NCBI GenBank assembly: GCA_002633005.1
Contig: NMRA01000024.1
Span: 955,786 to 1,019,785, forward strand
Direction: 5' to 3'
DNA from: Phoronis australis
Lineage: Eukaryota; Animalia; Phoronida
DNA length: 64,000 bases
The translations under genes and the position numbers were made by a program. The notes under the pieces are model-generated. The model was given only the letters and a program-made list of their open reading frames with translations, made no database searches and had not been told where the DNA came from. This document shows, piece after piece, positions 21,701 to 45,420 of the stretch; positions within the stretch are counted from its first letter, which is position 1; each line of letters begins with the position of its first letter.

Positions 21701-22806
21701 GATCATGCTCAGACTGTCTTCGTGTAAGTGACTCGTGCTGATATAGTTTGCGATCTAGTGTCGTGTAAATGCGACCTAAGTGGCGCAAGGGGCATCGTGA
21801 CAACTGACACAGTGACAACTGTCGCTCACGTAAAAGCGGATTTTAGTGGTCAAAACTTGGAAGTGCAATAAACCGTTCTTCTGTAAAAAAAAACAACTTT
21901 TAGACTGATTATCATTATAAAACTGATCTCAACTTGTTCCTCAATCAGATAAAAAGTGATTTCTAGAAGAAGTGACAGTGCGGTAGTAGTTGAGGCTAAG
22001 CTTGGCAAATAAAATGACCCACTGGGTCAGAACTACTGAGTTGGCTTGGTGACTAGCAGTTACGACTTATCAGTTCTTCGCTAGCCCAGAAATCTCTTCC
22101 TGTCTGAGTAAGGCATGATGCGAGAACAAAAAATTCATCACAGAAATCCATGTATCAACAGCTATCTCTGTCAAACATGCTTTTCGGCGACTTATTCACG
22201 CGCTGGTCACTCATTCAGTTGATCCTAAGTGTCATGGGAGATAACTGTAGTTTAACAGCATTAGACAACATGATGAGTGTTACCAAATTATAAATAAAGT
22301 TTTTCCCAATTTTATTTTTTGCAAATATTTTGTATATCTGCTAGCAGGCTGACTTGTTTGTATCAAGGAGGGATGTCAACCTCCTATTTTCAAACAACTT
22401 TGTCATGTTACGTGTGCTGCACCTACTGGCAATTTTTGTATTTCGGAGCAAAAATGACGTATACCTGCACGCCACCTATTGTCTAGTAAAGAGACATGCT
22501 TCCTTGTTACAGTTTACATGTTTGCGGTGAATTGTAATTATCAATGAATAATACACGAATGTCACTGTCTGCAGTATTGCTAACCAGTGTAAAGGACAAT
22601 CCGAAAGTAGACAGGTGCAAACAAACCAAGTGTTGTAAGGTGGTTGACCCAACAAACTGACAAGCCTGCTGTTAACACGATAGGCACATTTGAGGATGCA
22701 AACCATTTGTCTTTTGCAGAGCAGTAAAGCCTACTTGGAGCGTAGTATAAAAGAGAGCGAAGATGGGCTACGAGAGCTCGTGTTGTCAAAGCAGCAGGGG
22801 AGATAA
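15743..22806 (+). CDS. PFDN1: Prefoldin subunit 1, 4 coding exons, 126 aa
   Basis: Exons 15743-15784, 20328-20494, 21277-21361 and 22720-22806 (381 nt, GT-AG, phases consistent). Protein MATSSGAVDMELKK AFQDLQAKMV...MYEGVGRMFVL...EEKIKNLE SSKAYLERSIKESEDGLRELV matches prefoldin-1 along its whole length. Confidence 0.96.
15962..17039. mobile_element. Foldback DNA transposon, outer copy (internally deleted), 8 bp TSD GATGACTC/GATGACGC
   Basis: Ends ..ACAGGCGTCCTCAGCTTCTGATCG and CGATCAGAAGCTGAGGACGCCTGTG. Flanks 15954-15961 and 17040-17047 match at 7 of 8 positions. Confidence 0.75.
16229..16898. mobile_element. Foldback DNA transposon, inner copy, 670 bp, about 315 bp TIRs, 8 bp TSD GTTTTGTG
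   Basis: CACAGGCGTCC ... GGACGCCTGTG is a near-perfect inverted repeat around a spacer of about 40 bp. GTTTTGTG is at 16221-16228 and 16899-16906. Confidence 0.9.
18715..18885 (-). pseudogene. Degenerate THAP zinc-finger fragment, probably transposon-derived
   Basis: Translation FCCVQQSKNSTKKKENKDLVSFYILPSDAKLRME...IRRD follows the THAP pattern (CC..C.N....SF..FP.D..LR..W...I.R). The second Cys and the Trp are lost. Confidence 0.5.
21424..21776. mobile_element. PIF/Harbinger-like MITE in PFDN1 intron 3
   Basis: TIR GTCGCATTTACACGA / TCGTGTAAATGCGAC with TTA/TAA-type flanks. Confidence 0.65.
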
Positions 22807-24914
22807 TGCGCTGTGCAAGGACTAACTTTCAACTGGTTGGGAAAGCTTCAATATGAGTCTGACCTCAGGATCCAATCTTCTGTATTTAAGTGGATATTGA
22901 ATTTAACTTATTTTTTCTGTTTTCTGTGTAGTGCATAGTCAAGAATTGTTGATTTTGTGCTTAATGCGTGATACTTGTCTGCACTTCATGACCCCAACAT
23001 TAAAAGCTTCAGACTTCAGTTAGATTGTGAATTCTTGAGTTTAAAGATTATTTGCATGATCCTGGGTTTGCTGATGTATATCAGGAACTAAACGGCAATG
23101 CTATTTCAACATCATCTACGCTAAAAAAAGTGCAGTTGTATTCACTGACAACTTGTAAATGTGAAAACAAAAAAATCTGCATATAGGTGACCCTTGCAAT
23201 AATGACATAACTTGGGAGGTTACATAGCCCGCATCATGCCATGTTATTCCCCAGCACCACGTCTCGATACTTACTGGATACGGCCTAGTGGTCTCAGCGG
23301 ATTATTTTCAACATAAAACTCGTTCTTAAACACGTAATTTTCAACTTACTTCGCATTCACATCGTCACTATATGCTTCTAATTTGACCAAACCAACACAG
23401 AGATAAGAAATTAGGGTGCAAGTTCCAGTTTAAGCCCAAGCGTCTGAGTGCCACATTTGAACTTGTGTTGTGCACTGAACACTGTAAATCCTTATGCACT
23501 GGAGCACGCAGTCAAACCCATTTTCTTTTGAATATAGTTTGAGCTCAGTTGAAATTCTATTTCAAATTTCAAGATTTTGTCTCCTAACCTGATTGATTTT
23601 GCCTGTAGTGAGTGCTGAACTTTGATCTCTTGGCAAAAAGCAACAAACATCAGTCAGCCTAATACTCTTGTTTTAAAGTTGGTCAATATATTTTTTTATC
23701 ATTTTTTGATTATTTTGTGTTAATCAGTAAAAACAGTAAATCGCCAGGATATGCCCATGTTCATTTATCAGTGATTTGAAATTTTGTAATTTTACCTTCA
23801 ATAAATGAAATAGCAAACAAAAATTTCATTCTCTTAGCTTTTTATCGGTTATGTATAGTTGTTTTTGTCAGAATATTTGCATTTATAGCTGAATCTTTGT
23901 TGGCAAACATATTTAAAAGGCATCATCAAATCAAAATGCTATATTTCACTAAACTTTTTACATTTACATGACATTGTAATATTACACTTCATTACATTAA
24001 ATTTCATTAATAGAACAACAGCTACATATTTACAAATTCAATAATACATTCAGGAACGCATGCAAGCTAAATATATTGTCCTCTTTTCTATACACACAAT
24101 TGGTTGCGTTTCCACTGACCAGAGTGTGGGATCTGATCTTCAAATTCAGATTCAAAATTTAACCAATCGTGATGCATGATTGGAGTACAACTTTGTAAGT
24201 TTACTCGAAGTGTAACGTGCAATTGGTTAATTTTCAATCCCAGTACAGAGATTAGGCGGCAGGTGCAGGGGTCTGTTTCATGGAAAGTCAGAAATTTTAA
24301 CTATGTTCCCTCCGTAGAATTATTGGATAAAATTTTTGCTGGTAACAGTTAGCACATGAAAAAGAAATAAAAGTATTGGAGCAACTAGTAGTTCTGGGTA
24401 TCTTGAGTCAACCTGTACATTTGGTAAGGTGAGATTAAAAAGGCATGGAATGCGAAAGCTCGTAAAAAATATCTCTTAAACAATTCCTGTGGAAAGTACC
24501 ATCTCGCAACATCTACTACAGTTATTCACTTTCCCCTGGGAGAGAATTTCCAAAAAAATCACAAGATTCCCAATTTTTGAAACACGTGCGAAGGAAAAAC
24601 TCTGTAGTCACCACAGAGTTTCTAATCAACCTCCCACTTATGATAATGCGTGCATGCGCTCACAGTCATTGGACAAACCGCTGACTTACCAGATGGATAT
24701 AACGGCAGATTATCATGTGTGACCGCACTCCCAATCTGAGGTAGACGGCACAGTATGAGACAAGCAAGACTAGGTAGTAAATTTTGACGCTTGGGAGCAT
24801 GTTGGACGAATTTTAGAAGCCAGGTATCGGGAGTTCTCATGAGAGATTCAAATTTAGATGTCACAAAAGCGATCACTAAAGTACCGATCCCGAAGGTCTT
24901 GGTACGGCACTGCA

Positions 24915-26330
24915 AAACTAACACAACGTGGTATTCGTCCTCTACACATCCCGAATTACATAAATTTCATTTTTCATTGGGAATATTTGTGTGCCGACCT
25001 CTTTCTACTAGTAACGAATGATTTGAGCCTAGCAATCGAGTCAGAGATTGGATAAAACGTGGAGATTCCTTACAAAACTTGCCCAATTATAAGAAGACCT
25101 TCCCATCAAGTCTGACTGTCAGAAAAAAAGTGTATCGTCCGCTGACTTTACCCCACGATTACTAGGCATCCTCAGTATTTTGAACCAATATTTTATACAG
25201 GATACGAAATATTGAGTAAACAATGGGAATCGACCACATTCTCCCATGACTGCCGAGTTAGAGCAACAACTGCCTACTCCTAATATGCCTTTACAATACT
25301 TCATATGTACATTTTCCAATTGTTAATATTCCTTAACGCCCCATATCTCATCCAGCCTCGTAACACAAAGAGGTGTAAACCATTTTATCGAACAGGGGAA
25401 AGGCTATCGACGGAGGTAGATCCATGCGCGCACCTAGGGGGCTCGAGTTCGACCCCCACCCCATTTGGTGAATTGGGCAAAAAGGTCCGCCTCAGAGAAA
25501 CGAAAAGTCCGAGAAAACGAGACAAAAGTCCACTAAAACGACGCGAATAAACAATCCATAGCCGAACGTGGTACCCGGTGGTTTTTTTTTGGTCCCCGTT
25601 TTTTCTTTTAGTAAAAGGTCCATGTTGTCAGAAATTCGAGCCCCCCTGTATTTTTGGCTGGGTGCGCGCATGAGATCACGACATCTTCACTTTAATTTAC
25701 AAATTTCAGAGGCAGCTTTATTTGCTTGACTAGATAACGTTTTAAAGGCGTTGGTTCACAAAACTTAGGGTAATAAACCCGCCAACGTATTTGTAATGAA
25801 ACACAACATCGACTGAAGTTCCATCGTAGAACCATTTCTCAGGTCGTCTAGGGAGACTGCCATTTTTCAAAACGGCCACCTTAGTTTTCTTCAAGTTCAC
25901 TTACATGCCCATGATTCGCAAAATTCACAATTAAGCATACGTTGTAAGTTAATGGCGGTAGAGGAACACAACATCATGTCATCTGCTTACAGCAGGGAGT
26001 TAACTCTTGGCACTTGTTTGCTGAGATATGATGTGCTATTAATATTACTCTTCGCTGTCAGTCAATTCAGAAATTCGTTTAGATACAACAAAATAATAAT
26101 GACCTGGTCATGAAACCTGGCGAATACCAACAGTACAATCAAAGAACTCTGTAAGACCACGATCTTGAGGTTTCGTGCAAGTGCGTAATCTACCACTCAT
26201 AGAGCGAGGTATGCTGAAAATTTTAGCGTGCATATCAATATTTTTCAATCTATAGAAGAGTAAATTATGAGAGATTCGATCGAATGTCTTTGAGAAATCC
26301 ACGAAAGGCTGCGGCTTGAAGTCGCCATTG
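24915..26330 (-). mobile_element. Decayed LINE ORF2 (RT core plus C-terminal Cys/His motif), interrupted by a MITE
   Basis: Collinear fragments with stops and frameshifts: FVDFSKTFDRISHNLLFYRL, TEFFDCTVGIRQ, MKYCKGILGV..SNSAVMGECGRFPL, NHSLLVERGRHTNIP, CNSGCVEDEYHVVL. Confidence 0.85.
25423..25672. mobile_element. 250 bp MITE with 5 bp TSD (AGATC), inserted in the LINE remnant
   Basis: AGATC|CATGCGCGCACC ... GGTGCGCGCATG|AGATC, with a perfect 12 bp TIR. Confidence 0.88.
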
Positions 26331-26723: not shown

Positions 26724-29700
26724 CTACCAGTTGAAGGGTGAGGTAGCAGTGCTTAGAACAGTTGAGCAGGTGGTGGGTAAAAGTTCCCCAACTTCATTAA
26801 GAATCAGTCGCTGAGCTGACCCTTTCGCTGGTTGAGGTGGTTTGTCGGCTAAGGCAACGCACAGACGGCATGAGCTAACAGTCCATTGGTAGAACTGTGC
26901 AGATGCTGTGCATTTGTTTTTCAGTTGTCTTCCTGTGTACCCTTCCAGCATCTCAAGAACTCTTGCAGCTATCTCGGGCCGCAGGTGTCTTAGCCTGAAG
27001 TCACGAATCCGCTTTGGCAGCCCGACGTAGGTGCGCGTGCGCAAACTAGTGAGTAGTCCTTGGCACGCGACCCATTCATTTGTGTCGTCCTCGTGTGTGC
27101 CTAACATCAGCAAGGCTGCTCTGAAAACGTCGTGGACAGCGGTTGGTGGGTTCGTCTCCTCGCGAACTTTTGCCATTTGCTCCCTGTCCATGTTCAGTAA
27201 TCCGTCTCTCATGTCATTGAGCTTGGATAACTTATCCTTCAACCCTTTGGCCATTTTCAACTCTTTCTGAAACAACTCGCTGTCGCCGCATTCTTCTAAC
27301 TCCTGCACAACTTTTTGTAACTCGCTAGAGTCTTTTTGTTCTATAGCGTCCTTAAGCAGTTGTTTTCGATTCAGTGCCATAACTGTTGATTTTACGCGGG
27401 AAACTAATTTTTTATCCCTAACCAAGCCCCTATTTTCTTTTACAAAAGTTTCGTAGTTTGACAGAGCATCTGTGATATCGGAAAGAGACCCTGATCCCCT
27501 GACTTCTTGTAATTTAGTACTCAATCTTAGATGTTCGGCTATAACTTCTTTGCTAATTTTTCTTTCGATCTCTTCCAGCACGTGTTCAGTTTTATTTAGT
27601 AATAGTTCATCTTCTGTGCGCTCCTCTGCAGAGGCAACAAACGTTTTATACTGCTCGAGTGCCTCTAATATCGCCGATTTATCTACCTCTTGAAGCGCCG
27701 TTAGCAGCCGTTGTTTTCGTTTGTCGTTTTCGGCTAGTGCCGCTGATGGCCGCTTCTCGGATTTTTTCACTTTAGGTTTGAGCGTTTCGTCCAGAGAAAA
27801 CATGTCTCTGTTTTTCTCTACGAAACGCTTATAGTTTGCCCAAGATGTGCGCACGCTGTGAATATCGTCCCTCTTTACGTGTTTAAGTTCTTTTTTCAAA
27901 ATTTCATGCTCCTTGTGCATCTCATCTTCCACAGTTTTTAGATACTTGCTGCATTTCTTGGTAATCTTTTCATCAGGTTCGAGGCCCGCACCTTTAACTG
28001 CACTTTCATAATCAACCACCGCTTGTAACAAGGTTTGCCTATCATTTTCTTTTGTTGCCCGCTTTACCTTTCTTTTCAGACGATTTTCTGCGCTTTTGAC
28101 TACTTTATTTGCCTCATTTTGTAACCGCTCGTTTTCAATGGATTCTTGTGGAGCACTTTCCATTTCACCTTCGGCTTCATGGGCTGTTGTTTTTTCTCCA
28201 GTCGTGGTCTGTGGTGCACATAAATCGCCCTCTTGTTTGTGCGATTCAGTTTGTTGTGAAGAATATTTGTCAATTTCTGAGAATGACTTATCTATTGAAA
28301 CGTCTTGTTCTTCGTGGGAAGGAAATTTTTGGAGTTTGGTGGACGTTTTTTCACTTGAAATATCCACTTTGACGGACACGTCTTCTGACCACGGTGTTTT
28401 GTGTTTTTCTACCGATTCCGCTGAAGCTATTATTGTTTTTGACGCAGTTTTCTTGGGCAGCGTTGCTTCTGGCGGTATTTCATAGGATCGACGTTTTTCG
28501 TGTTCCATTAAAGCCTTCTCGACTTTCTTCGTTTCGCTTTTGGTGCTCCTTGTGGAATCACTTAGCTTCATTTTATCTTCTTGCATCTCATGTAAAAAAC
28601 TGTCGCTTTGGTGAAAAGTTACGTCAGATCTATTTTCTTCTGCGACCCCTGACCCATCAATTTTATCGTCCTTTTTGATGGAAACACCGCTTAAGACGTC
28701 ATTTATTGAACGCTGTTTCATTTCTGAGTCATCGCCCGTCTTGCTGTCGCGTCGCGATCCTTGTTCTGGACTTGTTCTTGTTTCATCAGTTGAAATGCTG
28801 GCCTCGGGTTTCCCAGCTAAGAGGTTACGCGCCTCTGATAAAAGAGCATTGTCGCACTGAACTTCATTTTTATGTTTCTCAGTAAACTCTTCGTAGTGGC
28901 ATAACGTGCGGTAAATTTGAGACTTGCTTGCACAAACAAGAGAACCCCTGAGGGCTTGAGAGATCGACTCGAACATAGCAGTGACATCTTTGACTCTTTG
29001 TATTATTTCTTTTACGTTCTGCAACAGAAATTCGTCGGCCGTGATAATCCCAGTGTTGTACTTAATAAAGTCCTCGTACTTTGCGCAAGCCATCTCAGCA
29101 TCTTCTAGTTTAGACCACAATGTAATGCCTTTCAGTTCCTCCTTTATCATCTCGTGTTCGTTGTCAAGATTTGCAACCCGCTGGACGTGTTCCTGGATTA
29201 TGATTTTGGCACATGAGATCAGTTGCTCGTCTGGATTCCATCCAATGCCTTTGCATTTCTTCTCATATTCTGCTATCGCAGATTTGATTAGATTTATGTC
29301 TCCAGAAGCCTTTGCAGTCTTAAGTTTTTCAATACTATTGTTAATTAAAGCTTCATTTTTCTCACAAGTTTTCAGTACTTTGACAGCCTCGGACATCATT
29401 TTTTTGTCTAGGCGCTGTTTACTTCCTGTTTTCTCCAGTTCTTCATATTCCGATAAAAGGACTCGCAAATCTTCAATATTTTGTTGTTTCATAGCCTTCT
29501 TTAAATTTGCTGTTACTTCGTCAAATCGGCGCTTCTTATCTTCTTGTGCAACTATGTTTTCTAACGCCCTCCTGGTTTCGTTTATGAAATTTTTATCTAT
29601 AATTTTTTCATTTGCGTTTGTTTCAGCAAAAATTTCCATCTTTGATAAATTTGATCGAAGAAGGTCGGATTTCTGAGCTTCGATCGCCGTGTTGATTTCA

Positions 29701-32700
29701 TTCTTGAGAGACATGTACTCTTTTGCAAGCTCTTTTTCTTTCTTTTCCAATTTCAGAACTTCACTTTCACCTTCTTCTATAAGTTCGTTTTGCATGTCGA
29801 TGTTCATATCCACTATGTCTTTGCTATGATCGTTGAAAAAGTTTTTGTACTTCAAGCAAGCCATTTTAATCTCTGACTTTTTTCCTTCTTTCAGAGCATT
29901 TTCCAAATCCTGCGCCAGAGGTGTTGCTTCGTCTATCAACTTTTCACGATTTGCTTTTAACTGATCAAGTCTTTTCTTGACGTCTTGAAGCAGCTCTTCA
30001 TCAGGCCAGACAAAGTCGTTGTTCTGTTTGATGAAGGTTTGGCAACGTACTACAGTCTCGTTTAGTACACAAATATCTCTCGTTTTTTTGGCCTTAGTCA
30101 TCAGATTCTTCAACTCTCCATATTCTTTTGTCAAAAATTTCATACGTGTTTTTAATTCATTGACTAGCCCATTTGCTTTCTTTATAAGCTTTTTATCCAC
30201 GACCTCTTCGTCTAAGTTGGAGTAAGTAACCAATGTCTTACTGATATCGTCTATGTTTTGTGTTTCCATGGCTTGTCGTAGAAGAGATTCTTGTTCTTTT
30301 GCCAGAGCCCCTTGTCTTTTAGCTTGCAGCCTTAAAGCGTCTGCGGCACTGGAAAGTAGTGCTTCGTCTACTGGTACTTTCCCGCCTTGACGTTTAAGAA
30401 AACCTTCATACTTGGATAAACATTCTTTTATTTCTTTAACACCAAGAGAAAATACAGCGAGGCGCAGATTTTCTTTCAATTTTCTCTCAGTACGGATATT
30501 TTCTTTGTCTAGTTCAAGTAATAGTTTTTCTGCGTACTGCAGTACCGCCTCGTCACTCGGCCCTGCAATTTCCCTGAAATTTGTTAGTGCAGATTTGATC
30601 AAAAGGCAATCGCGTAATTTCACAGCATTGTTCAGTTCACGTTTGACGTCAACATTTCTTTGTTCTTCCAACCTGTTTAAAGTTGATTTGACCGAGTTCA
30701 TCAGCTCGGTATCGTCAATGCAGATTCCAGGATTCTGTTTCCGAAATGCTTCGTAATTTCCAACTTTCAATCGAAGATCACTCAAAACAGGTTTCCTTAG
30801 TGCCACGGCTAGAGCATCAACTACCTCCTCATATCGCTCTTCATCATCTTGTCTAGCTGAATTTGTTGTTTCAACACATTTATGGGCTTCGTCTATTAAC
30901 GTCTCATTCATCAAGTGTTCGCATCCATTGTCTTTGGCATAGTGTCTATAGTTGTGTAGTTCAGCGTTTACTTTCATTCCGTTTTTTGCTCTAATTGCAT
31001 CTTGTATCGGTTTTTCGAACACTTTCAGATCTTCACGGCATTTTTCTTGAAGGGAATTTAGAGTGCTTTGTGCTGCTTTTACCAGTGTCCCGTTAATGGT
31101 AATTTTGTTTGTGTTTTCGTTGGCGAATGCTTCATAATTACGTAGTGATGTTTCCAGCCGTCTTACGTTTTTAATGCAAAGCGAATCCGTTAGTAGCTTG
31201 CTTAGCTCTGTTTCTTTGTGTTCTCTCTTTTCCTTAAAGCCTTGCAAAATTTCATCTGCGCTGTCGACAAGTGTCTTGTCAAGATGCTTGCAGTCACTGT
31301 ATTTTAAGCAGTACTCTCTGTATGCTGCAAGCGTGATGACAATGTCGTCTTCATTGGTTAAATACACTGCATCCAACAGTTCTAGTTTCAGGCGCTCTCC
31401 CTCTGAAATTTCGTTTAATCTTTGCGTAGCAGATGTCGTTTTCTCCACCAGATCGTAATCTGCCGCTAAGGAATTGTTTTTGTCTTGGAATTGTTTGCTT
31501 TCTGTCAAATCACCAACCGTGTTGACAGAAATCGCTGCGTTTTTACGCGCTTCAATTTCTAATGAAACATCGCCCCATTTCCCCTTTTCTGTCAGTATTT
31601 CCTGTGCCTTGTTCATGAGACTATGATCAAGGTTACCCGTATCATACAACAGCACAAAGTCCTGATATTCGTAGATAGCTTTCTCGAGATCTTCCACATT
31701 TTCTGTTGACAAAGCTTTTTGTAAAGTCAAATTTATTTCAGCGATTGCATTTTCGTCTCCATCTGTCTTTGCCTTATCGGGAGTGGCAGTCTCTCTCTCT
31801 GCGTAATCATTCTCCTCGTTGGATGCAAATGACCGCTCTGCGGTTTCCTCCTGACTTCCATTTGATTGCTGTTCGTCCATTTCGATAACGGTACTTACTC
31901 TTCTGGACTCTTTGCGGTGCCCTGGGCTTCCGAGTTGCGATCGTAGGTCCATTTTTTCGTACTGTGCTTGAGCACGCGAAACCAAGATACTGTCAATAGA
32001 AATGTCGCTGCCGTGTTTTTGGCCGAACGACATATAGTTTTCTAGGGCTTGCAACACTTCTTCTTTTTCTCCTACGTACAGCGTGTCTTCCAGTTTGTTC
32101 TTCAATTCCATTTCCTGTTCTATTTCAATGTCTATGATATCGTCGACAATGTCCTGTGCTGTTTGTAGCAGTTCGAAGTCTATGTCTGCTTTGTGTTGTA
32201 TTCCAAAGTTTTTGTAGTTGTACAGACCTCTGCGTATCGCCATTTCGTCATTTGACAGAAGCGCTTGTTCTAGTTCTTCTCGAAGCTCGTTTTCTCGTAA
32301 AGCTTTGTTCTGGTGCTCTTCTGCGCTTGTTCTGGCACTCATAGCTTCTAATAGTTTTTCATTTTCTCGAATAAAATCGTCGGAAAAAACGGACGCCCTC
32401 CATGTTGACTCAAAATCCGTGGATAGCCGTTTCACTTCCCGCTTCGTTGTCCACTCAAGCTCTTTTACCAACTGTTTCGACTGCATGATTAACCCCTTAT
32501 TAATTTTCACAAGACCATTGTGTTCTCTTTCAAAATTTTCGCATTGCTCGATCTTTGCTTTGATTTTTTCTGCATTGTTTGTTTTCAGTACTTTAATTAA
32601 GCTTAGCTGCTGCTGTTTTACTTTGCCTTGCAGTTTCATCGTCTGTTTTTGTTTTAGTATATTTTTTGTAGCTTGCACAAACTTCGTCTCAAAGGAGGCA

Positions 32701-34817
32701 CTCCTTGATGGTGGTAACGCTAGCTTTTCATATTTTTCAAGTGCAGCTCTCATTTTAGTTTCCTTGCCAGATATTATCGCTCTGACAAATTCTGCTTTTA
32801 ATAATTTCTCCTCAGCTGTGCAATTTCTGTCCCAGTCTTTGATGTTTTCTTCTGTCATCTCAACTAAACTGTCATTCAACGATACCCTTCTCCTTTCCCC
32901 GAGTTGCCTGTACCTCATCAACTTGATCCTTGCTGAATATTCGTTATTTTTCTCTAGAGCTTTTTGTAGTTGCTGCTCCAGCTGGTTTGCTTGTTTCTTA
33001 GCCGCTTTCGTTCTAGCTATCATTTTCATGATTCTGTTAAGTATTTCGGGAATTGTAGGACATTTGTTGTACTTAAGTCCGATAGCATAAAAGCAGATTA
33101 GAAATGTGCTGAAGACTAATATCAAACCAAGTGGCAATGCCCATGCAGCTGGGCTTGTGGAGAATTGCACGTAAAAGCTTCTTGTGAGCTTTTCACCGGT
33201 GTTGTAAGCCGAGCCATGCAACAAGGGTCTTACGACACATGTATAAATTCCTGTGATAGCGTCTGTGTTTTTCTCATCGATACTTCTTTGCACATTAATG
33301 ACGAGAATGCTCTTGTTGGACCTAAAGGTGATGTATGGTGAATCGTCATCTTCCGCAATGTCGTTGTTTTGACATTCTTCAAGAGTAACTTCCCTACACC
33401 ACGTGACGGCCGTGCGTTCTCTTGGATCTAACACTTTCTCGCAATTCATTTCAAATACTTCAGTACTTTCAGTAACTGTTACCTCTTCAGTGAGGATATG
33501 GTCCTCGCCGTCCGCCCACTTCAATGGAGATAAGACGAGAAGATACGTAGATGATATGATCGTGCCCAGTTTGTTGCTGATGGAACACTGAATCAGTGCA
33601 GAGTCATTCTTTGTGACAGCCTTCAGAGTGAGGGTTGACCGCTCCACTTTGTGTCGCGTTGAAGGTCTCAATTTGTCTCCGTTTATATACCATACTATAT
33701 TTACTGGTTTTAATGTGTTTCGATCCTCTTCACATTCGTAAAACACGTCGTTTCCAACTACTGTCTTTTTATCTGTCAGTTTTTTTCTTGGAGAGAACAC
33801 CGGCGGAAACACAACTTGAATGTGAACGACTGCTCTGGCAATTAATTCCTTTGTGGCTGGATGTCGTCCCTCACAGGTGTATCTTCCTGTGTGTAGAGCC
33901 TCGGCATTTATACCTAGCAGCTCAATGGAAGCTTCCGTGTTCACTCTTATCTTAGCTTTGGGTATTCTGTTGGGGTACAACCATGTGATATAGGGCGTTG
34001 GGTTCCCAACGAAAATGCACTTTAATGAGAATGAAGTTCCCGCGGTAATCTGTTGAGTGTCTTTGGGTGCATAGACCAAACGTTGTGATTCCGTTAGTGA
34101 CGGACCAGGTATCCCTTGTAGTGTGTACCTATCCAGTCCAACTTTCTGCGTAATCTCCTTGTTGACCTGGAAACATGCCAGTGCTCTTTCTCGAAGTTTT
34201 TCAAAATCTTTAGTTGTAGTATGAGCTATGATAAGAGAACCGTTGTCTGGTCTAATAGACATCCGATTGGTTTCCACCAGTTCTTCGATCTCCGTTGGGT
34301 TAAAACTCTCTCGTGTCATCCACGACCACGTGAAGATTGGATTTGGAGGGTGTTGCTCACGAATCGGTGTGCATGGAATTTCTACCTTGGCGCCAAGTTG
34401 AACTCGCATCACTTTGTTTGTAGGTTCATACTGTCGAATGTAGTAAACGTCTATTTGCGACAAAAAAGATAAGTCTCGCCCAAATGCATTGGAAGCAAAG
34501 CACCGGTAACTCAACTTGTCTTTGTTACCAATGTTCATAAAGTAAAGTGTACTTCCTTGTTCGTTTGAGGTGTACATTATTTTGGGTATTGGGAACGCCG
34601 TTCCATTTCTATATATTTTCTGCCAGCTGTACTGGATTGGCGGTGTACCTTCAGCTTTACACGAAATCCTTAAATTTTGGTTGTAATGGGCTCCAATTTT
34701 GGCACGAGGTTGCTGTATGATTCTGGCGGGTTGGCCTACCTCCATTCCTGACTGAAGATTTATCAGCATCTGGAACCAAAGAACAAAGTGACACTGTATT
34801 AAATTACAGAATGTCAT
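26724..34817 (-). CDS. 2697 aa single-pass membrane protein: 5 Ig-like domains, TM helix, long helical-repeat cytoplasmic rod, C-terminal dynein-MTBD-like domain
   Basis: Uninterrupted 8094 nt ORF. Ig signatures: ISCKAEGTPPIQYSW...YRCFASN, LKCIFVGNPTPYITW...TGRYTCEG, YECE..IVWYING...DSALIQCSISN, TGIYTCVV. Hydrophobic WALPLGLILVFSTFLICFYAIGL at about 33075-33146. The start is uncertain: ATG 34817 gives a plausible signal peptide, but there is also an acceptor-like TTCTTTGGTTCCAG before ATG 34769. Confidence 0.9.
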   Translation of the reverse strand: MTFCNLIQCHFVLWFQMLINLQSGMEVGQPARIIQQPRAKIGAHYNQNLRISCKAEGTPPIQYSWQKIYRNGTAFPIPKIMYTSNEQGSTLYFMNIGNKDKLSYRCFASNAFGRDLSFLSQIDVYYIRQYEPTNKVMRVQLGAKVEIPCTPIREQHPPNPIFTWSWMTRESFNPTEIEELVETNRMSIRPDNGSLIIAHTTTKDFEKLRERALACFQVNKEITQKVGLDRYTLQGIPGPSLTESQRLVYAPKDTQQITAGTSFSLKCIFVGNPTPYITWLYPNRIPKAKIRVNTEASIELLGINAEALHTGRYTCEGRHPATKELIARAVVHIQVVFPPVFSPRKKLTDKKTVVGNDVFYECEEDRNTLKPVNIVWYINGDKLRPSTRHKVERSTLTLKAVTKNDSALIQCSISNKLGTIISSTYLLVLSPLKWADGEDHILTEEVTVTESTEVFEMNCEKVLDPRERTAVTWCREVTLEECQNNDIAEDDDSPYITFRSNKSILVINVQRSIDEKNTDAITGIYTCVVRPLLHGSAYNTGEKLTRSFYVQFSTSPAAWALPLGLILVFSTFLICFYAIGLKYNKCPTIPEILNRIMKMIARTKAAKKQANQLEQQLQKALEKNNEYSARIKLMRYRQLGERRRVSLNDSLVEMTEENIKDWDRNCTAEEKLLKAEFVRAIISGKETKMRAALEKYEKLALPPSRSASFETKFVQATKNILKQKQTMKLQGKVKQQQLSLIKVLKTNNAEKIKAKIEQCENFEREHNGLVKINKGLIMQSKQLVKELEWTTKREVKRLSTDFESTWRASVFSDDFIRENEKLLEAMSARTSAEEHQNKALRENELREELEQALLSNDEMAIRRGLYNYKNFGIQHKADIDFELLQTAQDIVDDIIDIEIEQEMELKNKLEDTLYVGEKEEVLQALENYMSFGQKHGSDISIDSILVSRAQAQYEKMDLRSQLGSPGHRKESRRVSTVIEMDEQQSNGSQEETAERSFASNEENDYAERETATPDKAKTDGDENAIAEINLTLQKALSTENVEDLEKAIYEYQDFVLLYDTGNLDHSLMNKAQEILTEKGKWGDVSLEIEARKNAAISVNTVGDLTESKQFQDKNNSLAADYDLVEKTTSATQRLNEISEGERLKLELLDAVYLTNEDDIVITLAAYREYCLKYSDCKHLDKTLVDSADEILQGFKEKREHKETELSKLLTDSLCIKNVRRLETSLRNYEAFANENTNKITINGTLVKAAQSTLNSLQEKCREDLKVFEKPIQDAIRAKNGMKVNAELHNYRHYAKDNGCEHLMNETLIDEAHKCVETTNSARQDDEERYEEVVDALAVALRKPVLSDLRLKVGNYEAFRKQNPGICIDDTELMNSVKSTLNRLEEQRNVDVKRELNNAVKLRDCLLIKSALTNFREIAGPSDEAVLQYAEKLLLELDKENIRTERKLKENLRLAVFSLGVKEIKECLSKYEGFLKRQGGKVPVDEALLSSAADALRLQAKRQGALAKEQESLLRQAMETQNIDDISKTLVTYSNLDEEVVDKKLIKKANGLVNELKTRMKFLTKEYGELKNLMTKAKKTRDICVLNETVVRCQTFIKQNNDFVWPDEELLQDVKKRLDQLKANREKLIDEATPLAQDLENALKEGKKSEIKMACLKYKNFFNDHSKDIVDMNIDMQNELIEEGESEVLKLEKKEKELAKEYMSLKNEINTAIEAQKSDLLRSNLSKMEIFAETNANEKIIDKNFINETRRALENIVAQEDKKRRFDEVTANLKKAMKQQNIEDLRVLLSEYEELEKTGSKQRLDKKMMSEAVKVLKTCEKNEALINNSIEKLKTAKASGDINLIKSAIAEYEKKCKGIGWNPDEQLISCAKIIIQEHVQRVANLDNEHEMIKEELKGITLWSKLEDAEMACAKYEDFIKYNTGIITADEFLLQNVKEIIQRVKDVTAMFESISQALRGSLVCASKSQIYRTLCHYEEFTEKHKNEVQCDNALLSEARNLLAGKPEASISTDETRTSPEQGSRRDSKTGDDSEMKQRSINDVLSGVSIKKDDKIDGSGVAEENRSDVTFHQSDSFLHEMQEDKMKLSDSTRSTKSETKKVEKALMEHEKRRSYEIPPEATLPKKTASKTIIASAESVEKHKTPWSEDVSVKVDISSEKTSTKLQKFPSHEEQDVSIDKSFSEIDKYSSQQTESHKQEGDLCAPQTTTGEKTTAHEAEGEMESAPQESIENERLQNEANKVVKSAENRLKRKVKRATKENDRQTLLQAVVDYESAVKGAGLEPDEKITKKCSKYLKTVEDEMHKEHEILKKELKHVKRDDIHSVRTSWANYKRFVEKNRDMFSLDETLKPKVKKSEKRPSAALAENDKRKQRLLTALQEVDKSAILEALEQYKTFVASAEERTEDELLLNKTEHVLEEIERKISKEVIAEHLRLSTKLQEVRGSGSLSDITDALSNYETFVKENRGLVRDKKLVSRVKSTVMALNRKQLLKDAIEQKDSSELQKVVQELEECGDSELFQKELKMAKGLKDKLSKLNDMRDGLLNMDREQMAKVREETNPPTAVHDVFRAALLMLGTHEDDTNEWVACQGLLTSLRTRTYVGLPKRIRDFRLRHLRPEIAARVLEMLEGYTGRQLKNKCTASAQFYQWTVSSCRLCVALADKPPQPAKGSAQRLILNEVGELLPTTCSTVLSTATSPFNW

Positions 34818-35341
34818 GCTTTTTAGGAAGTCAGCGACACAACGTGTCTTGTTTGATGATGTGATCTCGTGAACCGAATAGTGCGCGTGTAGTCGACGCT
34901 GCTTTGTGTTGGCCTTACCTCAAGTCTTTTTTACACTACTGGAAGTCTATATTGGGGAATTTTCGTGTACAAACACTGGTACATGTATGTATTTTGTTGC
35001 TACTGTTTTGTCTCTGTCCTTTTGTATTCTTAAGCAGAGTCTTTTTTCAGTGGTTGCGATGCGATTCTGAAGAAAACCTTTCTCTGATCGCGCAGGCCTA
35101 CATTGCAAATACCCTTTGTTGTACTGTCGTATTTTTACATTTTGTGTCAATACTTTCGACATTGGATGTACGTTGTCATATTTCGGTATTTGTAACTAAA
35201 ACTTGCTGAGTATGCTGCCCGTTGAACAAATTAACAAAGTAAACGTTTTTCATATGCGTGACATGCAAATTACCTTTCCGATTTCGATAAGAATTTGAAA
35301 ATGTAGTGACGACTCACACTTCACATTGATGCGGCAACAGT

Positions 35342-35641: not shown

Positions 35642-38018
35642 ACAGTCTCCACCTAACTGTGGACAAATCCGCCCTCGGGAGTTAAGATGGCTCCAAGGGA
35701 GGAAACTAATACATTGATATTTGTTCTATCTGCTAGACTGAAACTCACCGCCGTTGTCATCTATCCAAGTCGTCACCACCTCCTCCTGTACCAATCGACA
35801 CCACTTTCAACATCGGGTTGAAACTTCTTACCAGTGAATTTGTATCGTTTTTGCAGTTGAAAACGCAGCTTCGGGGTTATTGTTGAATGAGACAGACTTC
35901 TTGGTGTTATTGGCTTTGACCCGTCAGAGCTGCAAGACAACCGAAACCGTTGACTTTGTGATTTTATTACAAATGTTCAATTCCTGCCCCTGCTGGTCAG
36001 TTTTCTATGAAGTAAATTCACCGAAAAGGTGTTTTTTCGACTAGCCTTCGACATTGGTCAGTCTGTAGCGTTCACTTTTTTAGTGCTGCAACACAATACA
36101 ACCCTGCGCATTACAACCATGTTCTTCCCATTTCTTGTCCACCTTCTACATTTGAAGGTCCGTAGCGGAGGAGGCAGCCTTAAGAACATGAGTAATGTTT
36201 CACCAAGATTTTACGAAGAGAATGAGGACCGAGGCCCAACGCAGACGGATACTTGGGAGCTGGTCTTTCTGCCTCAAGTGAGCTGTGAGCTGTTAGCGCT
36301 GCACCAACTGGAGATGTGAAATGATGAACTGGATGACTAGGCTAATCTAGCCGTTCTTCAGCTCAGCTACGGTTCAATTGAGACAAATAATTCAGATTGT
36401 ACCTATCCGCCTGAGCTGGCCCTGAAGTCAGGATTCACTTCATAATGGTCCAGTTTGGGAAAGTTCATTTTATTACGTTCCTGCTTTGAACGTATATTTT
36501 GATAGGGTGTTGTTCCGGGGGCCTGCTACGCTGCTTGTGGGACTATTTCAAATTTCCCGTGGACCAGATTCTGCGCTCGGTCCTACTGTAGGGTTACACC
36601 TTGTTTTGAAATTGGGTGCGTGAGCCATAAGATGTTCTGTGTGCATGGGAGCGGCAAAAAAACGACTCGGTTTTGCAGAACGAAAATTTCTTGCGCAATA
36701 CTACCGGAAACTAAAAAACATCAAGAAAGTGCAACGGCAAACAATCTTCCAAAGTTAATGAGCATCGCGTTAAATTTGGTTTAAAGACTCTATTCCTTTC
36801 AAATTTCCTTTTGTAGTGAATTTAAACCACTAATCTAATTTCTAAACTATACATATCTTGTCCGAGTTTCATTTATATCATTGAGAGTTATTTCAGATAG
36901 GCAAAAATCGTCTAGTGTGCTTTGCTGTTTGGGGATCGGATGATAGATATTTTTCCAACTTCAAACTGCAACTAATTTCACTGGATCATCGTCAGCTCTT
37001 ACAAGATAAGCTTCCAATTGTCAAAAAATTAACTATGAATCAATTGATTGTCGGATAGTCACATAAGCATGTGAATCAGAAACAAAAAAATCTTTTTTAT
37101 GAAAACAGAATATTATACTTAAGTAATTCCCGAAGGCAAGTTCGTGGATTCTTAACAGCCAACCGGTGGGGAATATGGGAGACAGGGCATCCCACGGGGC
37201 TTGGGGGGAGGGGGGGGCTCCCCAAGAAATTTTACGAATTCATTCGTGTTACGTGTATTTTGGTTCATTCCAGAGGTAGTTGTTACGGTTGAAACGTGAA
37301 CTCCAAAAATCTCTGAAATATTTTTTATGATTGACAGTACATGTACTTTGAGTACTTTAAGACGTTAGATATTCACTCTGCATAAGGACATCAAAATCGT
37401 ACCCCGACAGTGTGTTCGATATGTGCGAATTTCTCAGAAAAAAATATTCCTAGTAACACTTTTCAAAGGAAATACTATTCTTATGATACAGTGAGAAAAC
37501 TATTGACGTACTATCGTTATAAAAACGTCGGTAATATTCCTTTTGTGAAATTCACAAAAGTAGTGGTGGTCAAATTCTTCAAACTTCCGCCCTTTCGATG
37601 GCGTACTATCCTATTGTGTATTTCAAAGCAATTATTTTGGTTGTTTGGACGGAATGTCAGATCTTTATACTGCTGCTCCTTGCACGATTTTTTGATGAAT
37701 TTGTTATCTTATGTTCTCCCCTCTTGAATAGTTGACAGTGCCGGATTTACAGAAGGACAGAGTTGGAATTGCCCCAGGCCCTCCCTTCGAGAGAAGACCC
37801 CGCCTGGAAGGGGATCTCTTTATGTAAAAGGGTAATCATTAAAAGTGGCAAAGATTGACAGCTAATTCCATCATCATGTGACTTTCTAAGAAGTGACTTT
37901 CTTAAATTTTTTTTTTGCGATTTCACAAAAACAGGACACTAAAGTCAATCGATTCCATCTTTGGACTCTCTCTTCGTGAACGTCCCTTTAAAGTGGAAGT
38001 TCCAAGCTAATTCCTTAT

Positions 38019-38849: not shown

Positions 38850-40970
38850 ATTCATGTGAAACGCCTGGAATAGAAATAATCTAAATTAATTTTGAATGAC
38901 AGGTTCAATGTGTGAAGACACAGTATTAATGATGTTTCGTTCACATGGACTAGAATAAAATGCTCTGATATAAACCTTTTCTTAATATCAGTGTATAATG
39001 TACAAATAAATAATATGTGGAACTCATGTTCAATTTCATGTTTACCTAAGTTAAAACAGATACACAAACGCCTCTCTCTGGGGATATTAACATGTCTTCC
39101 TTGTTCTATCCGAAGACAGTGACACGAACAGCGAAAGCTGGCAAGGATTGTCCTTGATGCTGAACAAATATTTTCCCGGCTCCAACAAAGTTTTGAATCC
39201 CATGTAGAGCTCAAGCTTCTTATTACAATTTTTGTTTTCATAGCAGGTCTGTACAGCACAGTCACTTATTTTGTGTATGAATTGAGATAGGAAAATTTCC
39301 TTATTTCCCACATCTTGACAAATCCAAACAAAATCAAATCCATGCGTGTATAGAACATTTTTAACCTTCGTACACCGCGTTTTGTGACCAGATTCGTCAA
39401 GCTGACGCGTAACATGTACGTTGACTTTGGAAATCTATCATCACTCATTTCCAGTAGCTTTATCAAAAAGACAGTGTACAGAGACAGGACGCCTCCCAAA
39501 CTCACCGACGACTACAGCGTTCCTGGCGGAAGACAGGACGCTCAGAACATACTTAAAACATCTCATCTGCACAGATTCTATACAATTTTTGGTATCAAAA
39601 CCCCAAATTTCTGAACCATACGTTACGATAGGTAAAATCATTTTATCAAATAATTTCATGGCAAAGCTGATTTTACAAAGGACATTGACTTTAGTACTTA
39701 TCTGCTAAGGTTTACCGAGCGCCGAGAATCCGAACTACCTCTGACGCAAACACAAGTCCCAAATATTTAAAGAGTTAACTACTTCGAGCTTAGTAGCGCC
39801 AAAATACCATTTTTCGTAGCTTCTTAGTTTGCCTCCGTTGCGGAAAACCATTCATTACCCGTGTCTTTTTGAGATTTACTTTTAACCCAGATATCGTAGA
39901 TCACCTTTATCACAATTTCGTTTTGGAAGTCTCCCACTTCATATTGAAACTGGTAGGTTTTCTAACACGGAGGCCTGTTCCAACAAAACAGACTTAGCTA
40001 AGACAAATCTTAAATTTTAGTAAATTTCAAAATACAAGTTAAATTTGTCTCAAAACCAATTCAAGAAAGAGATCTAAAGTTCGACTTAAGTGTGTGATAT
40101 AAGTGTGTTGTCTTAATTTTGAATAACTTACCGAATGTGGAATTTTCAAAGTTTGGAATTTAAGACAAATCTTAAACTTAAGTCAAAAATGAACTTAAGT
40201 CATTTTCTTGAAACAGGCCCCTGATCTCTATAACAGATTTTGCTTGCTTTTTAATTTTCATTCTGTTGAAGATGAAATTCATTTTCTTTGCCATTATCAT
40301 TTTTATTTTATGAAGACTTAAGAATTTTGTTGTTTTACAAAATCACACCTGTTAAATTCTGAAGACAAACTGCTATTTTATGTAATAATTTGTGTAGTGC
40401 TTTTAACAGACGACGAAATTCTCTGTTCACTTAATTTCTTCAATAGTTTTGAGCTTCATATCAAACTGTATGTGCATTACTATTCTTGTATTTTGTTTTA
40501 AGTGACTAATAAGCCCCGTGTGATGGGTGTTCAAGTAACACTCGTCACTGTTATAATTTTTTTCTCTCTTTTCTCCCTTAAACCCCACTTTTTATTATAA
40601 TTGACAATAGATGTAGCTGCTGCTGTACTATGCGTACAATGTATTACATTTGAAAACTCATCGGAAAAGTATACACCCTGACAATTGCCTTTACAATTCA
40701 CTTTTATTAACTCATTCAAATACATTATAAAAAACAATGGGCTAAGCATGCAACCCGGTCTTCTACCGATTGAACATTGGAATAGATTAGTCAAACCATC
40801 TAGAGTTTCAACACAAGCTATTAATTTTTCATAACAAAAAAATAACACCCGCATTGTTCCTCAAATAATTTTCCATTGGATACGATCCAACGTGTAAGCC
40901 TGTTATTTAATATTTTATTAAACACCTTGCTGACGACACTCAGCAAAGAAATGCCTCTGTAAATACGTGT
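38850..40970 (-). mobile_element. Decayed LINE ORF2, same type as 24915-26330, interrupted by insertions
   Basis: FQCSIGRRPGCMLSPLFFIMYLNEL, KLFDKMILPIVTYGSEIWG, NAVVVGEFGR, FRCSCHCLRIEQGRH..RERRLCIC..IEHEFHILFICTLY. Confidence 0.88.
39971..40220. mobile_element. MITE (Harbinger-like) inside the LINE remnant
   Basis: Imperfect TIRs AGGCCTGTTCCAACAAAACAGACTTA / TAAGTCATTTTCTTGAAACAGGCCC. Internal TAAGACAAATCTTAAA repeats. Confidence 0.65.
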
Positions 40971-41604
40971 ATGAATGATCTTTGTTGCAACAATGTTCTG
41001 GTCAGGCAGGCCGAAAGGAAAATGAATAACTGGTAATTTTCTCTCCGTGTTTCGCTGTCTTTTTTTCCTCGACTGCCCCCGGTCCCACGCCCATATGGGT
41101 TGCCACGAGTTTAACGCTTGCTATGAACCCTGCACTTGGGCCCTAAGCTGAAATCAGTCTTCAAATGGTTAATTCTCTCTGGCTCCTATTCTCTTCTCCT
41201 GCGTTCTCTCCTTCAGCTTAGACTCCGCAGGCTTTTTGATAGACCACTTAAAGGGTCAATAAACTCGCACCGTCTGTCGAAAACAAGTAAGCCCTGTTCT
41301 TTTAGGTAATCGGCTTTAATTATCGTTCTCCGCCTTGCTCAGATTGGAAGTCCTTTTCAGGATTTCGAGAAGATTTAGTATGTCATGCCAAGCCCGTTCT
41401 TAAAAGTTGTAGAAGTCCTGTTGAGGCGCGTTACGCACGTGCGCGTGGCACAAGGCGTGCCTACTGACGTCCACACCGAAACTCATCAGCTATTTCTGCT
41501 CTCACAGCCACTGAAAAGATTTTTCATTAGAGGATTTTTGGAGTGCCGTGGACAGACTTTACTACACCGGCTATGTGGACTACTGCAGAATTTATTCCTT
41601 CAAT

Positions 41605-42649: not shown

Positions 42650-42853
42650 TTCGTCGTATCGAACTTTTCAGTTGACGTCATATATCGTTTCACAGCTGAT
42701 TAGTTCGTAACCTTTGACCTTGTCAGGCAGGCGGATTGTACGCTATTCTTTTGTGTGCAGGCTAGTGCTTCCGTATGCGGTGGTCACGACGCTAAAATGA
42801 CTCGTTAGGCTGACGTATCCGGACTGTGACACCCCATGAAACTCTAGGTAAGA
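42650..42853 (+). promoter_or_regulatory. Putative promoter and non-coding 5' exon of the SLCO gene
   Basis: CpG-enriched stretch. CRE palindrome TGACGTCA at 42673-42680, DR1-like TAACCTTTGACCTTG at 42708-42722, and a strong donor CTAG|GTAAGA after 42847. The SLCO coding exon opens with an acceptor at 49623, so an upstream exon is required. Confidence 0.4.
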
Positions 42854-45104
42854 GTTCTATATTTAGATTGAAACGCCGTTATTAACTGACGAGTGTCCAT
42901 GACTCCTGTGTTTTAAATTGTTGAATTACCAGTAGGCTGTATTACGATCGATGACTGGGTAAACTTGAAGTGTCTAGTGGCAAGCCTACTGCCGAATCGG
43001 TAGACCACATTGACGAATGATTCAGTGTTTGCTCATCTCTACTCTGGTCTCCGAGACTCAACTTTCCGAAAGTCGTAGCAAGGGACATTTGAACCTTTGA
43101 CATTTAATAGTTGCTCTGCCGATTGCAGTGGAGTCGAGACCAAGTCGGAATATTCCGAATCCGGGCGGATTCCGATACGGGCGCGGACATGACCCATGTC
43201 TGTCTTCAACTTTTGTCGCTGAGTGGGCCTTAGTATTGAGGCAGCGGTCGTCCGTCGAAGGTCTGAGTCACTGAGCGCTTTGCTGGGAGTGCCCTACAAC
43301 GTAGCGAAGTCCAAAGAGCCAAGTTAAACCTTTGACATTGAACAAGTCAGATGAAGACTTGATAGCGAATAGCGTTGTAAATATCTGAGGACACCACCAT
43401 CTCAAATGGCTCCAGTGGTCATCCCATAGGCCTTCCATACACTGGAAGATTTTCGGCGAATCTTGCCATACACAGTTTAAACCTGGGAGTGATATTAGTC
43501 CTAGGTTTAAACCATCAAAGTCATGTTGCTTTTTAAAGCAACATAAAAGTACCCTTTGCGCTGGCATAGAGGGACACCTTAGGAGGCCATTGATGCCTTC
43601 AACTCTTCCCACCTCGAACAAATACTTTTTTTAGCTGTCCTTCGTTCATTTGCCCAAATCGACAACTGGTCACTTTTGCTGCTCGTACCAGGGGATATGA
43701 CCAAAAATAATTAAAAAAAATAAATAAACAAAAAAACACCATCATGGCAATTTTGTAGCCTACATGGCCGGGATTTTTTCCATTGTTTGGGCTTTACTTA
43801 ACAGTATATGCTACATTTGCCAGTGATTTTTATGCCAGAATTCTACCTTGGTTTCTGTTATTTGTTAGTATGGACAAAAGGACAGGCAAGGTCCAGGTAC
43901 CCGCGGCCACTATTATGCGTTATGCTAAGCCGCAGGTGTCTGGTGACTTTTTGATCAGCGATAATTATTCCAAATGTGTTTACAAGCATGAAAACAGTTA
44001 ATTGGGCTGTGTGGCTGTGTGAGCGGGTTTATATAACATAATAAAGAACTTTGCCTATCAAAGTATATAGAAGTGCTACACATCGTTTTCAAGAATTGAT
44101 TCCACAAATATCTGGAACACAAAAAAGTAACCGAAATCAGTGTTCGAGTCATAAAAAATTGGTTCACTAGAACTAGGTTTACACACATCAAAATTATATT
44201 GACTTCAGTTGCTTGACGGATGAGGAAAGCTGCAGTCTCTGCTTAATTATCTTCTCCTGTAAGTACGCTGGTAGTATATGCAACACAACTGATATGGAAA
44301 TTGGCTGTCTGGACTTGTTGGATAAGAAGTCGATCCAAGCAGCTACTCAAAGTAAATGACAAATTCGTGTAATGACTCCCACACAAAAGGATTGTGTTGT
44401 GATCCTCTGGTGAAAGTGTGACATTTTCTTATTGAGAGACTGCCTGTTAATGGACCCTTGCACCCCCCCTCCCAGAGTATATCCCTGGGGATTATTAATA
44501 ATGCTGTATAACCGTTCCCGTGAGGATACCCCTGCAGGATCGTTAGGAATACGCCAGTGAGGGGCTTGAATTTCTGTTAACTGTAGGAGGCAGTGTGGAT
44601 TCAGGTAGTCACTTGGGATCCTAATCGGACTGCATATACCCCTAGGCAGATGAAGACTTTTCTGACAAGACAATAAACAAGAACACTTTTTTTTCATAAG
44701 CTCTACCTAGTCAAGAGTAGGTCTCTCGTTGGCCTTTTCTATGCATTTGGGTAAATTATTTCATTAGCTGTGTGCCCAGGGTGATGCCTATGCTGTTCAG
44801 GCTTCTTGACTTCAGTCTGATGTGTTTTCCTTCAGCTTCAGTTCAAGCATGGTGCAAATTACACCGGTGTCATGGTGTCATGTTTTCATGTTGTAATCTT
44901 ATTTTCTGTTAATTCACCTAAGTAACTAATACGTTTACACACTGTTTTCAGTTCCTGAACCTGTCACTTCTTTTTTTATCAAAAGTATAAAAAACAAGGA
45001 CCGCATTCATTTGGCATGTGGAAAAACAAAAAAACCTCGGGCTTTTCAAGCATGGCTTATGAATTGATATAACAAATTTGAAACGGGGCAACACATGTTT
45101 GGAC

Positions 45105-45420
45105 CACAGGCATCCTCAGCTTCTGATCGTCCCCAATACACTATGTATACACTACAAGGTATGACACTCCCGACTAGAAATTCCACGGGTGCTTCACTTC
45201 AGCCGTCCGTATCAAACACAAAACTCAATAAATTTACACAAAACGGGTTCAGCAAACCATTAGCAATTGTTCTTTCTTCTAATTCCATTAACGGTGTCCT
45301 GTTCCAGCAAGTTTGCAATAAGTTCGCGGTCAAAGCACAAAATCTTACCAAAAAAGCCACACGTACTATCTACTTTGACACACAGAAATTGTCAATTTTT
45401 CACGGAAAGTCACGACATCA
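45105..45420. mobile_element. Single diverged arm of the 16229-16898 foldback family
   Basis: CACAGGCATCCTCAGCTTCTGATCGTCCCCAATACACTA...GACACTCCCGACTAGAAATTCCACGGGTGCTTCACTTCAGCCGTCC matches the left TIR. Confidence 0.85.

Follow-up and report, generated by a model that had tools for sequence, protein, structure and literature searches.

The sole long open reading frame (ORF) in the window, i.e. the whole 64-kb stretch of DNA that was analysed, is a real, expressed gene of undescribed architecture with one putative full-length transcript. Its predicted product combines an ectodomain of five Ig domains, a single transmembrane (TM) helix, a rod of 24 helical repeats and a C-terminal tip related to the microtubule-binding domain (MTBD) of dynein (Table 1). 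We hold this architecture, together with the homology of the tip with the dynein MTBD, to be very nearly certain.

Table 1. Features of the ORF and of the facing transcript (positions are those of the window; KD, Kyte-Doolittle).
Feature	Residues (aa)	Positions	Strand	Basis
Uninterrupted ORF, predicted type I membrane protein	1-2697	26724..34817	-	2697 aa, RNA coverage
Signal peptide (probable)	1-24	34746..34817	-	KD 1.39; neurofascin alignment from aa 25
Ig1-Ig4	30-429	33531..34730	-	Collinear with contactin/neurofascin Ig1-4; Pfam
Ig5, divergent	440-553	33159..33500	-	Cys 459/527; V-set_CD47
Predicted TM helix	560-582	33072..33140	-	KD 2.41; Lys on C side
Three-helix repeats 1-4	672-963	31929..32804	-	Profile tests
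Short linker, likely disordered	964-1026	31740..31928	-	Composition proxy
Three-helix repeats 5-19	1027-2010	28788..31739	-	Profile tests
Long linker, likely disordered	2011-2238	28104..28787	-	Composition proxy; no repeat match above -0.9 bits
Three-helix repeats 20-24	2239-2535	27213..28103	-	Leave-one-out profile test, family profile, model
Dynein MTBD-like domain	2536-2656	26850..27212	-	Altered helix H1 (K2550, E2554), basic helix H6
First exon region, head-to-head spliced transcript		34738..34984	+	Donor at 34985, spliced to 35857 or 42762

From its ATG the frame runs without N or internal stop, a length that would arise by chance with a probability of ~1e-75 at the composition of the window. 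The window is eukaryotic and rich in introns, and a search of a phage collection gave no match. Opposite the ORF lies the start of a plus-strand transcript with alternative second exons (35857; 42762-42849). Its first exon region probably represents the 5' UTR of the downstream multi-exon OATP/SLCO transporter gene (49435-63612 (+), ~49.7-63.6 kb; Pfam PF03137, E = 2e-45), and we infer that the two transcripts have a promoter region in common. Some reads of that exon region carry an 11-base insertion at 34953. Elsewhere in the window, exons at ~1761-12606 (-) presumably resemble Peter Pan/Ssf1, judging from a motif near 12400; a Pfam scan of this fragment gave no match. A repeated sequence in inverted arrangement at 16028-17060, of which a further copy is found at 45068-45547 (common translations), is probably a mobile element, and degenerate LINE-like pieces occur near 24600-25100 and 38850-41100.

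Transcription was assessed on about one fifth of each RNA run, all short reads. First mates of the reads across the plus-strand intron (GT donor at 34985) lie on the minus strand, from which the orientation of the library follows. Sense reads were found over 27 of the 27 ORF bins in run X1 and over 23 of 27 in X2, none being detected in X3 (0 of 27) or X4. The mean sense depth over the ORF in X1 was ~2.4 versus 0.24 for antisense (summed by hand), and the zero depth of the unique flanks (22000-22633 and 37216-37849) argues against DNA carry-over. The ORF is transcribed at a low level and in sense; its presence in X1 and X2 and its absence in X3, from the same study, suggests tissue- or stage-specific expression. 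No splice joint or loose end inside the ORF was among those listed, and no long read or contig spanning it was present in the runs searched. The initial annotation had named a misassembled junction among the findings that would overturn its reading. None was seen: sense coverage in X1 is even across the Ig-TM-repeat junction, there is no GC seam at the position of the TM helix and the DNA is devoid of near-identical repeats.

The ectodomain aligns with those of neural adhesion molecules. Residues 25-430 matched Ig1-4 of contactin-5 in a single stretch, linkers included (E = 3.9e-23), and so did neurofascin Ig1-4, starting at aa 25 (E = 1.3e-21); titin outscored both, but as scattered single-domain matches. 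Ig domains alone were recognized by Pfam at cut-off in the ORF protein, Ig_3 covering four stretches (E = 8e-33). Five Cys pairs are present (53/106, 149/215, 267/315, 362/411 and 459/527). The five Ig domains first proposed are thus borne out, by Pfam for Ig1-4 and, for Ig5, by the last Cys pair and a weak V-set_CD47 match at aa 470-529 (E = 0.001). The single TM helix, placed initially at about aa 558-581, coincides with the only strongly hydrophobic window (aa 563-581, 2.41 on the Kyte-Doolittle scale), which has Lys residues on its C side. The signal peptide is less clear-cut: aa 1-19 make up the second-best window and their moderate hydrophobicity (1.39) fits, while an acceptor-like tract ending at 34770, immediately ahead of codon 17, does not, and translation may begin on an upstream 5' exon spliced there instead of at ATG 34817. 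Absent from the ORF protein are fn3 domains (none at E ≤ 10, Pfam), the FIGxY motif or a variant of it, Walker A and AAA Pfam domains, and the transglutaminase core and KY Ig-like domains (Pfam).

The rod is made of units of three helices and ~60 aa. After the 24 units had been delimited by hand, each was scored with a leave-one-out profile derived from the other 23 and compared with 200 shuffles of itself: all 24 beat their own shuffles, 23 of them with 0 of 200 as high and one with 2 of 200. An earlier 16-unit profile had given up to 23.5 bits for left-out units versus a best of 3.7 bits in 200 shuffled tails, four left-out units falling below 3.7 bits. The last two units match the pair that precedes the tip in the relatives described below (family-only profile, 36.2 bits, aa 2418-2536). 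With a family-only profile of these pre-tip units the distal repeats reached up to 11.1 bits, and 1 of 200 shuffles reached 13.5; nine distal stretches scored at least 5 bits versus at most one per shuffle. It is therefore the number of matches and the leave-one-out test, not single scores, that speak for a common origin of all the repeats. Since the longest DNA repeat in the array is 32 nt at 75%, the units must be old and the array is not an expanded assembly repeat. Pfam matches of the repeats to TPR_Slam (1e-5) and HAT (1e-3) were below the cut-offs of these families and were discarded. The ~2100 aa behind the membrane had been taken for cytoplasmic helical repeats closed by a globular domain; the repeats and the globular tip stand, and the reading as repeats throughout gives way to one with two linkers (~aa 964-1026 and 2011-2238) that are poor in hydrophobic residues.

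By itself, the tip matches dynein weakly, yet specifically. A search of PDB with aa 2525-2655 returned nine rows, all dynein MTBDs (best E = 0.021), and aa 2480-2697 returned 21, of which 20 were dynein, the ORF tip alone being at E = 0.01-0.02. Pfam MT (PF12777) found no match in the ORF protein itself, a word search with the tip alone retained 0 of 2518 candidates (weak evidence), and a single-sequence AlphaFold model had a pLDDT below 50 and was uninformative in Foldseek. The relatives give the stronger signal. HMMER with aa 2400-2697 detected 179 clusters at E ≤ 1e-3; the best 150, plus 6 from a further search, constitute the 156 relatives considered here. A profile of 110 sequences (the query and 109 others) matched the yeast dynein MTBD with E = 1.9e-12 (2.4e-13 in another profile search); among the matches listed for it, 57 of 60 were dynein-sized or dynein-named chains, and 21 of the 110 members matched PF12777 at E ≤ 0.01. 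Modelled by AlphaFold with the family alignment (pLDDT 91.5, pTM 0.81), the tip adopts a six-helix fold that aligns with dynein stalk tips at Z = 11-13.5, for instance 5ayh (Z = 13.5, rmsd 3.5, 153 aligned) and the microtubule-bound 6rzb_C (Z = 12.0, rmsd 2.4, 135 aligned). Foldseek also put dyneins on top, with a best E of 5e-3 and none at 1e-3. Because the profile of the relatives and the predicted fold agree, we consider homology of the tip with the dynein MTBD as established, in keeping with the dynein-like tip of the initial annotation. The ‘MTBD-like’ element of TTLL proteins is a different helix-loop-helix motif (PMC12366701).

Whether such a tip may grip microtubules depends on its contact residues. 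Yeast dynein forms salt bridges to tubulin through K3117, E3122, R3124, R3152, R3159 and R3201 (PMC7042235), and the Glu among them is engaged in a reversed-charge ion pair that serves as the weak-to-strong binding switch (PMC4298687). In the ORF tip the first four of these positions are R, K, R and V, the fifth aligns as R beyond a 3-residue gap and the sixth is N: two are clearly retained, one is retained across the gap and three are missing. The family as a whole keeps the H1 contacts (Glu in 98% and Arg/Lys in 86% of 152 rows) and is without the dynein H6 Arg, the R3201 column being 40% Asp/Glu. Within this family the ORF tip is peculiar. K2550 stands where 92 of the 93 other rows have Glu and the remaining one Gln, and E2554 where 89% of the family have Tyr; R2545, R2552 and the P/A/L/G/W/F/W core are retained. 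Five of the 12 positions conserved at ≥80% are lost, a number equalled by 1 of 110 relatives. Helix H6, at net +3, is the most basic (0 of 110 relatives are as high), the net charge of the tip core being that of the family median. The end branch of the ORF tip measures 0.92 versus a median of 0.4, and the chain has no returning strand with which a stalk coiled coil could impose a high-affinity registry. With a Lys in place of the Glu of the flipped pair and a basic H6, binding would probably be looser and more electrostatic than that of dynein; we give the tip a little under an even chance of binding microtubules directly.

The same fold occurs in chains devoid of a motor. The tip model aligns with the radial-spoke chain 7jtk_C, isolated from the axoneme (Z = 10.6, rmsd 3.9, 149 aligned), which we take to be RSP2, with the sperm-doublet chain 9fqr_Xl (Z = 9.0), with the axonemal non-dynein chain 9e5c_2e (Z = 7.5) and with residues 1207-1457 of 9ya2_L (Z = 7.6, rmsd 3.3, 126 aligned, below the caution line of the tool). 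A paper on the radial-spoke structure may already describe an MTBD-like domain in RSP2. From its residue range and size, 9ya2_L would be Toxoplasma ICMAP2, and from its length of 1509 aa 9fqr_Xl would be EFCAB5; the record label of the latter, AKAP14 (‘A-kinase anchoring protein 14’), looks doubtful for a chain of that length. ICMAP2 sits between protofilaments of the microtubule with an 8-nm spacing, and the sections of the paper at hand name dynein twice, in a reference title, and do not note the likeness (PMC12819142). EFCAB5, which has a DPY30 motif, has been placed in radial spoke 3 (PMC11779644). One relative, P0197, carries both a Dpy-30 motif and the module, and matches 9fqr_Xl (E = 6e-7). 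Motor-less precedents of the MTBD fold are thus found on the lattice and, apparently, off it; given the copies in 7jtk_C and 9fqr_Xl, the fold does not imply lattice binding.

Repeats and MTBD-like tip together form a mobile module whose carriers range from ctenophores and sponges to amphioxus, and most often it closes a hillarin/KY-like protein. The carriers named among 30 proteins looked up come from a ctenophore, sponges, an annelid, molluscs, a tunicate and amphioxus, and the source names include ‘hillarin-like’, in scallops. The MTBD-like domain ends the chain (60 of 67 proteins with at least 400 aa have it no more than 100 aa from the C-terminus), and what precedes the module varies. Ig-like_KY was present in 38 of the 73 longer relatives scanned, often with a transglutaminase-like core; a myristoylation-like MG start in 25 of 88 longer ones; LRRs in one (P0088). 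Another, P0021, belongs to mollusc-rich clusters and has dynein MT as structural neighbours (Atlas). One strong hydrophobic helix lies ahead of the module in 11 of the 156 relatives, in the order TM, few repeats, tip, and their ectodomains are CLCA, vWA or unnamed; three relatives are multi-pass. I-set or Ig_3 domains were found by Pfam in 0 of 156. Seven CLCA-like, vWA and multi-pass membrane proteins with the C-terminal module, i.e. P0147 and P0156 (amphioxus), P0122 (Styela), P0196 (Pleurobrachia), P0062, P0134 and P0136, all have the canonical Glu and would suit a binding test better than the ORF protein does.

A tree was built by quick search (LG+G4, 133 columns) from 94 of 157 rows; 117 covered the core, and rows below 280 aa were dropped except two. 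It puts the ORF tip beside an annelid protein and the KY carriers, away from the other single-pass forms, and a single clade of the 12 single-pass rows (the ORF and the 11 relatives) was rejected (p-AU = 9.6e-5, 94 rows, 133 columns). The better reading of this short alignment, with its many open forks, is that the module was joined to membrane anchors more than once, and such independent fusions favour a role as a membrane linker. A word search with the whole protein gave 18 matches, all Ig-domain proteins covering ≤17% of the query, and no full-length relative. In the accessible portion of the open-licence literature no description was found of the module on hillarin-like proteins or of the ORF architecture, and the available part of PMC3495828 makes no mention of hillarin or the dynein stalk. 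The architecture, which the initial annotation recognized from no characterized protein, was found neither among the 156 relatives, all without I-set Ig, nor in that literature, and no whole-protein orthologue turned up.

The fragments of the family hint at the origin of the gene. Among 22 short metagenomic fragments, 20 stop matching at one column, with Val, versus 2 of 86 full-length rows; they appear to read through into an intron common to the relatives. The ORF has no intron at that column or anywhere else in its 8.1 kb, and since it is devoid of one that its relatives seem to share, the fusion likely passed through mRNA. An L1/contactin-type ectodomain would have been fused to the module that closes a hillarin/KY-like gene, the unit preceding the tip would have been amplified before or after this fusion, and the mRNA copy would have landed head-to-head with another gene and used the neighbouring promoter. 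As inferred here, these features are most simply explained by an mRNA-mediated chimera that took over the promoter next to it.

As to function, the reading that we prefer, at not quite an even chance, is that of a passive adhesion-to-microtubule tether, grip on microtubules included. In such a tether the Ig part would engage a ligand or a neighbouring cell and the repeats would keep the tip at a distance of tens of nm from the membrane, where it would hold on to microtubules independently of ATP. If extended, the rod would measure ~60-70 nm (24 units at ~2.5-3 nm, an estimate from helix rise). This tether is supported by the homology of the tip, by the H1 contacts kept in the family, by R2545, R2552 and the basic H6 of the ORF copy, by the recurrence of membrane anchoring, by the precedent of 9ya2_L and by sense expression; it is weakened by the altered contact face, the loss of 5 of 12 conserved positions, the ~2x read depth and the lack of an orthologue. 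Of the linker between membrane and microtubule in one chain, as initially conceived, the architecture and the homology are upheld; the putative grip would have to do without three of the six salt-bridge residues, the charge-reversed Glu included.

A real receptor could also use its tip off the lattice, as an MTBD-fold protein-interaction module at the end of a long scaffold arm, with another cytoskeletal or cortical protein, or the tip itself, as partner. This we find possible, though well short of probable. The fold in the radial-spoke-type chains 7jtk_C and 9fqr_Xl, to which the Dpy-30 relative P0197 links the family, is in line with it, as are the remodelled H1/H6 charges of the ORF tip and the absence of the dynein H6 Arg from the family; yet the family retains the H1 Glu/Arg pair, which contacts tubulin in dynein, and every one of its nearest matches by sequence among solved structures is a dynein. 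Less likely again, and in our view improbable, is a young chimeric retrogene with a decaying tip; ectodomain or rod would then account for any function, or selection on the gene would be weak. The frame without intron over 8.1 kb despite the Val read-through pattern, the long branch and the low, sample-restricted expression would suit it, and 8 of the 12 read differences listed in the ORF (the best supported) change an amino acid; against it, the 8.1-kb stop-free frame, the five Cys pairs, the intact tip core and the strongly diverged repeats imply long-standing selection. An artefact of assembly or annotation, with two genes run together in frame or two separate transcripts, which the lack of a full-length homologue and of a spanning long read or contig might suggest, is very improbable in the face of the even sense coverage of the junction in X1, the lack of near-identical DNA repeats or GC seam, the absence of joints and loose ends among those listed inside the ORF, and the identical TM, repeat and tip order in 11 other proteins.

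If the preferred tether is correct, its interest is that Ig adhesion molecules use separate microtubule linkers, which a dynein-type foot on the same chain would bypass. Whatever the ORF copy does, many invertebrate proteins turn out to carry a mobile module that is related to dynein and lacks annotation; it offers tests of MTBD function without a motor, and the ORF copy, as a natural charge reversal, tests the role of the flipped Glu-Arg ion pair. More broadly, and as a tentative proposal that we rate below the tether itself, animals from ctenophores to amphioxus may possess a class of tethers, not described so far, that link membrane to microtubule directly and in which a motor-less dynein foot was placed repeatedly behind different receptors; the ORF would be the extreme form of this class, a 24-unit ruler setting the distance between contact and microtubule.

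Compared with known systems, the ORF protein is neither an L1-family member nor a dynein. L1-family proteins are defined by six Ig domains, three to five FnIII repeats and a short tail with a FIGQY ankyrin motif, and contactins by FnIII repeats and a GPI anchor. With both (neurofascin, contactin-2/4/5, neuroglian) the ORF shares a collinear Ig1-4, linkers included (E = 1e-21 to 4e-23), and with L1 the single-pass topology as predicted; it differs from L1 by its five Ig domains, the absence of FnIII and FIGQY and a tail of ~2100 aa, and from contactins by an internal TM helix followed by ~2100 aa, without fn3. L1 members reach the cytoskeleton via ankyrin, ezrin or MAP2c, and NCAM180 does so via dynein (PMC4754453). 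With the dynein stalk tip (PF12777 MT) the ORF tip has in common the predicted six-helix fold, sequence homology and basic equivalents of R3124 and K3117, but it has no AAA ring and no returning coiled coil, and the equivalents of E3122, R3201 and R3152 are Lys, Asn and Val. The motor-less MTBD-fold chains (7jtk_C, 9fqr_Xl, 9ya2_L and 9e5c_2e) resemble the tip in fold (Z = 7.5-10.6) and are not known to be membrane receptors. Hillarin/KY-like proteins (Transglut_core and Ig-like_KY) likewise have two three-helix units and an MTBD-like C-terminus; in the ORF the unit is amplified to 24, and an Ig ectodomain and a TM helix replace the myristoyl-like start. The uncharacterized single-pass carriers, i.e. 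the amphioxus CLCA-like XP_078700756.1 and XP_035689228.1, the Styela vWA protein XP_077966891.1 and Pleurobrachia EP00116 P002106, have the same order of ectodomain, TM, repeats and tip as the ORF, but with other ectodomains, tails of ~400-600 aa and the canonical H1 Glu.
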